A DNA stretch of 64,000 nucleotides from assembly GCA_045539815.1 (NCBI GenBank), contig JAZQGC010000038.1, positions 925 through 64,924 of the forward strand. The letters run 5' to 3'. The notes beneath the pieces are model-generated. The model was not told the origin of the DNA and ran no database searches. It was given only the letters and a program-made list of their open reading frames with translations. This document shows positions 29,065 to 30,030 of the stretch, piece after piece. This DNA comes from Candidatus Enterousia sp. Lineage in GTDB: Bacteria; Pseudomonadota; Alphaproteobacteria; Rs-D84. Within the stretch, counting starts at the first letter, position 1; the number at the start of each line of letters is the position of its first letter. The position numbers and the translations under genes were made by a program.

Positions 29065-30030
29065 TTCAATATCCCCGTACATTTTTCTGAAACCACTGCA
29101 ACTTTTTTGATTGCTGATATCTGGGTTGCGTTAAATATTGTTGCACTTGCAGATGCGGCGGTCGCACCAATTGACAACACATTCGCCGCAGTATTCATAT
29201 CTTTTTCTTTTTTCTTGCCAGCAACACTGTTATCATTGCGCACACTATTACTGTTTGCGACACCAGATACAACCGTGCCAGCCAAACCAGTCGCAGCACC
29301 AACAACAGAAGACGCCATAGCACCAGTGGCACGTTTGTTTATTTTGGAAACATCAACAAATTCATACTCGCCACAAGCATCCGCAATCGATTGCGCTTCG
29401 GTAATATCCGCGCCTTCCATACGTGCCTGCATCATTGATTTACGCAGACCTTCAACAGCAGACACGCATGATTTTATTTGGTTTTCTAAATCTTTATCAA
29501 CCTTGTTAGTACCGGCAATTGCCGCCCCTGCAATATTTGTTGCAGTATTTGCAGCCAATAATCCTGTACGCCAGTTACCCAGATTCTTGGATTGTGTGGT
29601 CAGCTGATCTATTTCGGATTGGATTTCGTTCGAATCAGTATTTGTCATATAACCAGTCTTGGCATTATCAATGTTTGACAATACGTTACTTTTCAACGGG
29701 TTTTTATACGCAGAATTTATACCAGACTCTTCAATTCTGCGTAACTTTTCCATTTCTAATTTTTCAATCAGTTCATCTTTATTTGCCTTGACAAAACCCG
29801 TAACCGTTGCACCAACACCAGCAGCAGTTCCAACCGCTGTAACGGCTGTATTAATTCCAGCCATTGTCTTTAAATGTTGCATTTCATCATCAATACCGAT
29901 ACATGCCGTATATGTTGCACGCAATGCATCATCTAGCGGCAATATATCCGTTGCGGCATACGCGCACGAGATACAAGGGGGGGGTAAAAAACACAGTAAA
30001 AACAACAAGCAAACAAATATTATGTTTCAT
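29061..30030 (-). CDS. exported Gly/Ala/Thr-rich protein, frame interrupted by a C8 (plus-strand G8) tract
   Basis: The main 315-aa frame runs 30008-29061, but only from a TTG without an RBS. An ATG at 30030 with RBS GAGGGAATAAT encodes MKHNICLLVVFTVFFTPP and then leaves the main frame at the C8 tract, stopping after 33 codons. One C fewer fuses it to ...CISCAYA, ATD..., giving a good signal peptide. Confidence 0.7.
29977..29984. repeat. homopolymeric G8 (C8 on the coding strand) tract
   Basis: The only G/C homopolymer of 8 nt or more that I found in this AT-rich window. It lies inside the signal-peptide coding region. Confidence 0.9.

Follow-up and report, generated by a model that had tools for sequence, protein, structure and literature searches.

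Can a run of eight cytosines decide whether an uncultured gut bacterium makes and exports a protein? The question is raised by a stretch of 64,000 nucleotides (nt) of DNA from Candidatus Enterousia sp. (assembly GCA_045539815.1, contig JAZQGC010000038.1, positions 925 to 64,924), which in its full length we call the window. On the minus strand of the window, a gene lying between an AmiC-like amidase gene and a giant gene carries a C8 run (29977 to 29984; G8 on the plus strand) between a well-marked start codon and the frame that encodes a conserved protein. Comparison with related sequences makes it likely that the gene is a simple-sequence contingency locus with this run as its mutable element, that it undergoes translational phase variation, and that the window holds its OFF allele. 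We refer to it below as the switchable gene.

Homopolymer phase variation is a textbook phenomenon, known from a few cultured pathogens. In Candidatus Enterousia it has apparently not been described, the papers examined that name the genus being metagenomic surveys. A DNA pattern scan of genomes representing species assigned the locus to this genus. The genus belongs to the uncultured order Rs-D84, gut bacteria with genomes of less than 1 Mbp that lack the tricarboxylic acid cycle and respiratory chains (PMC12306168). Switches of this kind are already known; what is new is the organism, an uncultured, genome-reduced gut alphaproteobacterium, and the target.

Anatomy of the poly-C locus

The elements of the locus can be read directly from the minus strand. 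An ATG codon (30028 to 30030) follows a Shine-Dalgarno (SD) sequence, GAGGGA (30036 to 30041), at a spacing of 5 nt. The frame that it begins opens with MKHNICLLVVFTVFFTPP, enters the C8 run at 29984 to 29977 (codons 16 to 18), and stops after 33 codons. This short open reading frame (ORF; 29929 to 30030, encoding MKHNICLLVVFTVFFTPPLYLVRVCRNGYIAAR and then the stop) is the product expected in the OFF state. The main reading frame, 315 amino acids (aa) long when counted from a TTG at 30008 (29061 to 30008), carries the conserved mature protein, LPLDDALRATY to CTGILK. It is +1 relative to the ATG frame and can be entered upstream of the tract only through the TTG, which has no SD-like purine run in the preceding ~20 nt. 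Each element that an earlier reading of the same DNA (here, the original prediction) had described was borne out by direct inspection. When the tract was edited in silico, removal of one C joined the two frames into a 322-aa ORF and addition of two Cs into a 323-aa ORF, the whole gene then spanning 29061 to 30030, while C8 gave the 33 codons only. The in-frame tract lengths in the window's lineage are C4, C7, C10, and C13, and C8 leaves the leader +1 out of frame. By inspection, the fused leader is a plausible signal peptide: its second residue is lysine, its hydrophobic core spans 11 residues, and it has an AYA/A cleavage motif.

The signals in front of the gene are conserved as well. In an alignment of ten leader sequences from six lineages, the ATG is invariant, as are G57, G59, and A60 of the SD sequence, and A54 to A56 and G58 are at least 90% conserved. 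The ATG is kept in all relatives, and by this conservation the codon at 30030 is evidently the genuine start of the switchable gene. Directly 5′ of the C run, TTTTTA is found in every tract-bearing lineage. Further upstream, just after the amidase stop, lies a promoter-like block (30053 to 30082), made up of TTGCTT (30082 to 30077), an 18-nt spacer, and TACACT (30058 to 30053). Its TTGC (T14, T15, G16, and C17 of the alignment; 30082 to 30079) and the TA...T of its second hexamer (T38, A39, and T43; 30058 to 30053) are invariant. The −35/−10-like spacing suggests a dedicated promoter directly after the AmiC-like amidase gene. A consensus promoter scan returned 19 sites, compared with 15.7 in shuffled sequences, and left the conserved block unscored, its −35 hexamer matching at three of six positions.

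The original prediction had also pointed out that the window has no other G/C run of at least 8 nt, and the count agrees: 29 runs of 5 nt, four of 6 nt, none of 7 nt, and one of 8 nt. As evidence, this rarity had to be rejected. When the 64-kb, 40% GC window was shuffled with its dinucleotide composition preserved, 34 of 100 shuffles held at least one C8, with a mean of 0.53. A lone C8 is thus within chance, and the case for switching therefore rests on the position of the run and on comparative data.

Tract length within the species and across lineages

Three sequences make up the database cluster of the closest homologue, namely P0121 (the 315-aa call of the window itself, begun at the TTG), P0001 (321 aa), and P0122 (323 aa, beginning MKHNICLLVVFTVFFTPPPCIS). 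The DNA that encodes P0122, here L011, comes from Logan run ERR11711984. Over 7,023 nt it shares 98.33% identity with the window, and the alignment has 115 substitutions but a single gap. That one gap is the tract, which in L011 is C10, in frame, and encodes the 323-aa P0122. The original prediction had held that loss of one C or gain of two would fuse the frames into a protein with a signal peptide; the in silico edits agree, and the gain-of-two allele exists naturally within the species. Other relatives read through the same position without a homopolymer: three further strains of the species (L001 to L003, 98.2% identical), sequences from the neighboring species (L004 to L010, 88 to 90% identical), and L012 all have GCTCC or GATCC and are in frame. 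Look-ups with the exact products of the window's amidase gene and 315-aa ORF returned no second sample of the window's strain.

The original prediction had called for a comparison of orthologous loci in related strains, and this comparison yielded length polymorphism, with both frame states, at the same site. Four diverged lineages besides the window's own have a run of C7 to C12 at the corresponding place in the signal peptide, and both in-frame and out-of-frame states occur among them. Altogether, five lineages have TTTTTA and a C run 45 to 66 nt downstream of the ATG, and their synonymous sites are saturated (dS > 1.8). At the DNA level, the alleles are C8 in the window and C10 in L011; C10 in L013, L014, and L015; C9 in L018 and L019; C7 in L079 and C2AC5 in L078; and C10 in L080 to L083. 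The gene is ON in L011, L018 and L019, and L080 to L083, is OFF by +1 in the window, L013, and L079, and is OFF by +2 in L014 and L078.

Two lineages have OFF alleles of both shifts. The lineage of P0008 shares the synteny and has ~70% aa identity; its leader, with TTTTTTA and C10 at the end, is out of frame. L013, L015, and L062 need a shift of +1, and the 96.4% identical strain L014 needs −1/+2, its frame having been altered by a T4/T5 difference earlier in the leader. This indel lies near codon 5 (L013 2401 to 2460, L014 2401 to 2461) and gives the hydrophobic cores MMKCRFYICLFLVYFL and MMKRRFLYLLVFSLFF, respectively, with in-frame tract lengths of C9/C12 in L013 and C8/C11 in L014. The T-rich leader appears to be frame tolerant, both frames giving acceptable hydrophobic cores. 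In the P0032/P0007 lineage, L079 (GCA_965320315.1) has C7 and is OFF by +1, and L078 (GCA_965354355.1) has CCACCCCC and is OFF by +2. These two metagenome-assembled genomes (MAGs) have no mismatches over 5,903 nt, and their sole difference lies inside the tract (CCACCCCC versus CCCCCCC). The chance of the sole differences in both pairs (window/L011 and L078/L079) landing in the tract is ~2e-6. The remaining tract-bearing lineages are in frame where read at the DNA level, with CTA and C9 in the lineage of P0003 (L018 and L019) and TTTTTA and C10 in four samples of the lineage of P0030 (61% identity; L080 to L083).

Variation is seen at the protein level, too. Within single 90% clusters, FLPPPANAG occurs beside FLPPPPANAG (P0003 and P0134) and FLPPYIG beside FLPPPYIG (P0007 and P0140). 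P0139 has an alternative-frame start call, MFLVCFYPPPYIG, analogous to that of the window, and many truncated calls of 265 to 299 aa are also present in the clusters. N-terminally truncated or alternative-start calls make up 16 of the 28 distinct sequences in tract-bearing lineages, compared with none of the 12 in tract-free sister lineages (Fisher p = 0.0009). Truncated homologues beginning MASAN or MIFPF were considered as further frameshifts and excluded, since L016 and L017 have an in-frame upstream ATG or GTG and no tract; these are start-calling artifacts in paralogous cassettes.

Metagenomes of the Joint Genome Institute (JGI) were searched with two patterns. A flank-anchored pattern had no matches. 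A lineage-independent pattern (C7, then 20 to 50 nt, then codons for D-A-L-R-A) had 58, of which only L062 belongs to this family; it agrees with L013 and L015, with one mismatch to L013 in 3,617 nt and a contig as long as that of L015. The other matches, from soil and other metagenomes, were dismissed as chance.

Are the OFF alleles decaying? All of their gene bodies are free of stops. The window (OFF) and L011 (ON) differ by 12 synonymous substitutions and one nonsynonymous substitution, and L013 and L014 (both OFF) by 17 and none. The ratio of nonsynonymous to synonymous substitution rates (dN/dS) is 0 to 0.024 in comparisons that involve OFF alleles (0.02 for the window's main frame against its close relatives) and ~0.08 to 0.14 between lineages, where dS is saturated. 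Judged by these substitution patterns, the OFF alleles are under strong purifying selection and are not decaying. The tract itself is also kept against the grain of codon usage. Of the proline codons, CCC is the least used (13%), and CCC-CCC occurs in none of the 13 Pro-Pro dicodons of the window's long ORFs. With CCC rare and pure C runs kept at one site over saturated divergence, the run is not a by-product of codon usage.

Probable slipped-strand switching and its alternatives

The best-supported account of these observations, and a likely one, runs as follows. The gene would be transcribed from the promoter-like block behind the amidase gene and translated from the SD-served ATG at 30030. 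The poly-C run falls where the hydrophobic core of the signal peptide gives way to its cleavage region, and the length of the run would change through slipped-strand mispairing as the DNA is replicated, reversibly within a clone. In the ON state (C7, C10, and so on in the window's lineage), the cell would make a preprotein with two or three prolines before AYA/A and export a helical protein of ~300 aa; in the OFF state (other lengths, including the window's C8), translation would end after 33 codons. OFF cells would then have ~865 nt of untranslated message ahead of the giant gene, and expression of that gene would probably be lower, too. The locus has the four sequence-level features of the class of homopolymer translational phase-variable genes: a 5′ G/C tract of at least ~7 nt, toggling between full-length and truncated products, length polymorphism beyond that of other indels, and intact OFF alleles.

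Several points weigh against slipped-strand switching. The sister strains L001 to L003 lack the tract, which is accordingly dispensable in the species, and the window holds one such tract only in 64 kb. The length differences seen are between consensus assemblies. C7 and C8 are at the low end of the tract lengths that switch rapidly in model organisms. Most of the truncated cluster calls are known at the protein level and few were read at the DNA level, and the truncated homologues were picked deliberately, so that ON:OFF ratios are not population estimates. The C10 shared by L013, L015, and L062 may represent the same data (one mismatch in 5.9 kb). Finally, every sampled allele of the P0008 lineage (L013/L015/L062, L014, P0144, and P0145) is out of frame or truncated in a strongly conserved gene, a pattern compatible with leaky decoding as well as with frequent switching.

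Leaky decoding would mean that RNA polymerase slips on the C run, that tRNA-Pro slips by +1 on CCC-C, or both, so that the frame is restored in a fraction of transcripts or ribosomes and OFF alleles are expressed constitutively at a low level, as has been described for frameshifts at homopolymers in endosymbionts with reduced genomes. The P0008 lineage is the strongest point in its favor, with all sampled alleles out of frame and 17 synonymous but no nonsynonymous substitutions. The reduced genome of Enterousia, below 1 Mbp (PMC12306168), also fits, and precedents for transcriptional rescue of homopolymer frameshifts are described in PMC4256274, PMC3017870, and PMC5009743. Against it, in-frame alleles with the same tract occur in four lineages, so that a frameshift is not obligatory; OFF alleles need +1 in some cases and −1/+2 in others, which excludes any single programmed ribosomal shift; and length variation is directly observed in the DNA. 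On the first two grounds, the locus was rejected as a member of the programmed ribosomal frameshift or transcriptional slippage class. The documented cases of slippage rescue cited here involve A/T runs. We consider leaky decoding an improbable substitute for DNA-level switching, although it could coexist with it. A related idea, that the run is more a constitutive expression rheostat than a binary switch, with RNA polymerase or +1 tRNA-Pro slippage setting the dose of the operon, is unlikely but deserves some weight. If it were true, the run would dose two exported proteins together, one helical and the other giant with a C-terminal module that can be swapped; the pair might form a system for interaction with partners or the host.

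The original prediction had named a homopolymer sequencing error as the alternative, in which the window's C8 would be a miscall of an in-frame C7 or C10 and the gene would be intact. Homopolymers are the classical site of consensus errors, and the window is part of a 69-kb contig of the MAG type. Yet 19 to 31 other homopolymers of at least 6 nt have identical lengths in the window and in three independent assemblies (L011, L001, and L002), with only the tract and one intergenic T7/T9 run differing, and ORFs of at least 200 aa cover 80% of the window. Long C runs recur at this site in many independent assemblies, at least four other strains, each assembled independently, also have out-of-frame lengths here, and the locus would be length polymorphic (C10, C9, C7, C12, and others) even if the window's own call were wrong. 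A miscall is therefore very unlikely.

We give still less credence to a plain inactivating frameshift, that is, an incipient pseudogene of a genome-reducing lineage with no adaptive reversibility. Genome reduction is order-wide (PMC12306168) and several lineages are OFF, but no OFF allele has a second lesion, dN/dS is 0 to 0.02 in the OFF-allele comparisons, and the tract has been kept over saturated synonymous divergence and against codon bias. Nor does the order look like one filling with pseudogenes, with a coding density of 81 to 94% and no pseudogene accumulation reported (PMC12306168). The last alternative takes the TTG at 30008 as a true second start. From it, the C8 allele would produce MLFLLCFLPPPCISCAYA/ATD..., whose short leader would still have enough hydrophobicity for export, and would be a "low" or "different" allele and not an OFF one. 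The T-rich leader is hydrophobic in more than one frame, L013 and L014 read different frames, and gene callers picked such starts for P0121 and P0139. This alternative nonetheless seems scarcely probable: TTG 30008 has no SD-like sequence before it, while the nearly invariant SD sequence and the ATG (30041 to 30028) are kept across lineages; the alternative leader lacks a charged n-region and has only seven hydrophobic residues; and in L013, the main frame has a stop five codons before the tract, so that no such start exists there.

Slipped-strand switching of this kind has parallels in known systems. In Campylobacter jejuni and Helicobacter pylori, which have small, AT-rich, gut-associated genomes, rare G/C homopolymers of at least 8 nt mark genes for surface structures that are turned ON and OFF, and there, too, the evidence often came first from tract-length differences between sequences. 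Unlike the single locus in 64 kb here, these genomes have dozens of tracts each. The poly-G tracts of pilC1 and pilC2 in Neisseria gonorrhoeae and Neisseria meningitidis (Jonsson et al. 1991, cited in PMC5953494) are alike in that a 5′ coding G/C tract toggles an exported, surface-associated protein between full-length and truncated frames. The pilC tract, too, lies in the signal-peptide-coding region. The differences are that the proteins are unrelated, that the tracts are C7 to C12 here and G9 to G20 in pilC, and that the present host is an uncultured, genome-reduced gut alphaproteobacterium in which the locus is known from sequence alone. Homology to PilC was not found in Pfam, NCBIfam, or PDB searches, nor did Foldseek give any match below E = 0.07, and the likeness is one of switch architecture only. 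In Neisseria, genic G/C tracts of at least 9 nt occur in pilC and other surface genes, and tract-bearing alleles are restricted to some species, with tract-free orthologues in others (PMC5953494), much as in the Enterousia lineages. Neisseria opc (PMC3960869) and Bordetella fim resemble the present case in that a poly-C run of variable length controls a surface protein, but their tracts lie in promoters and tune transcription, whereas the Enterousia tract lies inside an ORF and would act through the frame. Cases of transcriptional-slippage rescue, namely the poly(A) runs of Blochmannia and Buchnera and the tssM gene of Citrobacter rodentium (PMC4256274), share a homopolymer that interrupts an otherwise conserved gene of a reduced genome, with the gene body under selection. 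They differ in that the run is A/T and the frameshift is fixed; in Enterousia, alleles in frame stand beside alleles shifted in both directions, and the length of the DNA varies.

If the run is indeed a contingency switch, its conservation would mark the target as something that the cell must be able to hide or show, such as a surface structure under host immunity, a phage receptor, or a factor for contact with a partner. Among the more than 1,600 uncharacterized protein clusters of the family, one two-gene cassette would thereby be singled out as a likely determinant of interaction in these organisms. There is also a practical consequence in that gene callers systematically mis-start or truncate the switchable gene, as the 16 affected sequences of the tract-bearing lineages attest.

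The predicted exported product, the giant gene, and neighboring features

What would be switched? At E ≤ 0.001, more than 1,600 relatives of the repaired protein are in the database, nearly all unnamed, ~310 aa long, and from MAGs of gut alphaproteobacteria. By inspection, every full-length homologue opens with a leader that has n-, h-, and c-regions and an AxA-type site; the conserved LPLDDALRATY comes next. The product had no sequence match in Pfam, NCBIfam, or PDB. An AlphaFold model built on a 44-sequence alignment is all-helical and of low confidence (predicted local distance difference test [pLDDT] 59, predicted template modeling score [pTM] 0.43), and a Foldseek search with this model gave no significant match (best E = 0.08, template modeling [TM] score < 0.36). 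Pore-forming toxins of the ClyA, AhlB, and MakA types were among these nonsignificant matches and are mentioned as a lead only. Taken together, the predictions describe an exported, all-helical, Gly/Ala/Thr-rich protein of an uncharacterized family.

The giant gene downstream (25186 to 29064, minus strand) encodes a protein of 1,292 aa. This protein has a signal peptide, is Cys-rich in its N-terminal part, and contains repeats rich in Ala, Thr, and Asp; its C-terminal module, which contains an HPD motif, varies between strains. The ORF list places the start of the gene at 29082; a start at the in-frame ATG 29064 instead yields the signal peptide MKRFLIFFTILFSVGAAMA and fits the 4-nt overlap seen in relatives. 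That overlap, an ATGA in which the stop of the switchable gene meets the start of the giant gene (29061 to 29064), had been noted in the original prediction and is present as described. It recurs in relatives, where the order amidase gene, switchable gene, giant gene is conserved, and in paralogous cassettes. No terminator was found between the switchable gene and the giant gene, and the latter has a weak SD-like sequence of its own, GGGGA, 7 nt before its ATG. The two genes are probably coexpressed, and their coregulation through coupling or polarity is plausible.

The label of J-domain protein that the original prediction gave to the giant protein was not supported by Pfam. It rests solely on the motif KNFHPDKF at residue 1225; the protein matched no Pfam family, and DnaJ (PF00226) was matched neither by the whole protein nor by its C-terminal 113 aa, even at E ≤ 10. 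The C-terminal module differs between strains that are otherwise ~98% identical (window 25186 to 25761, minus strand, compared with L001 10262 to 11272, L004, and L011 7023 to 7701). In the window, it is a module of ~190 aa with KNFHPDKF; in L001, L004, and L011, it is longer and has tandem VNKTDNLLPA repeats. This exchange resembles the C-terminal replacement seen in polymorphic toxins and effectors. A G8 run (codons E-G-G-A) lies within the alternative module in L001 (10519) and L011 (7280), where L004 reads EGGS. It was considered as a second switch and rejected, being in frame and of the same length in both sequences, with no sign of switching.

Paralogous cassettes occur elsewhere. The assembly GCA_045645945.1, the source of L014 and L016, has at least two, each consisting of a gene for an exported protein of ~300 aa and then a giant gene, with a 4-nt overlap. 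The poly-C tract is found only on the amidase-linked copy; the other cassettes (L016 and L017) lie in different contexts, and L017 adjoins phage-like genes (Peptidase_S24 and HNH). In one 90% cluster (P0148, P0149, P0151, P0150, and P0152 compared with P0083), the leaders MKRIFNKLLFLVCFLPPPAIAN, MKKLLTFLIFLGGVSGADAG, and MRYSILSIVFCLFLPIVVNAN are unrelated and the mature proteins are nearly identical, which suggests that recombination has replaced the gene's 5′ end.

Outside the locus, the T7/T9 run mentioned above lies at ~32267, between the convergent gene ends at 32262 and 32289; it is T7 in the window and T9 in L001 and L002, and it is the only other length difference within the species over 10 kb. 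The longest homopolymer in the window is an A10 run (33570 to 33579; T10 on the minus strand), of the same length in L001 and L002. It lies in a divergent intergenic region beside prfA, ~40 nt upstream of position 33533, where a conserved gene of 414 aa with no assigned function has its likely ATG. On the plus strand, a gene at 31381 to 32262 matches Glyco_transf_6 (Pfam, E = 6e-23; NCBIfam Gltr_6, 255 bits). Family 6 glycosyltransferases include the ABO blood-group transferases and are uncommon in bacteria. The gene is present in the window, L001, L002, and L011, and it is missing as a whole (~920 nt) from L004 to L006, which belong to the neighboring species.

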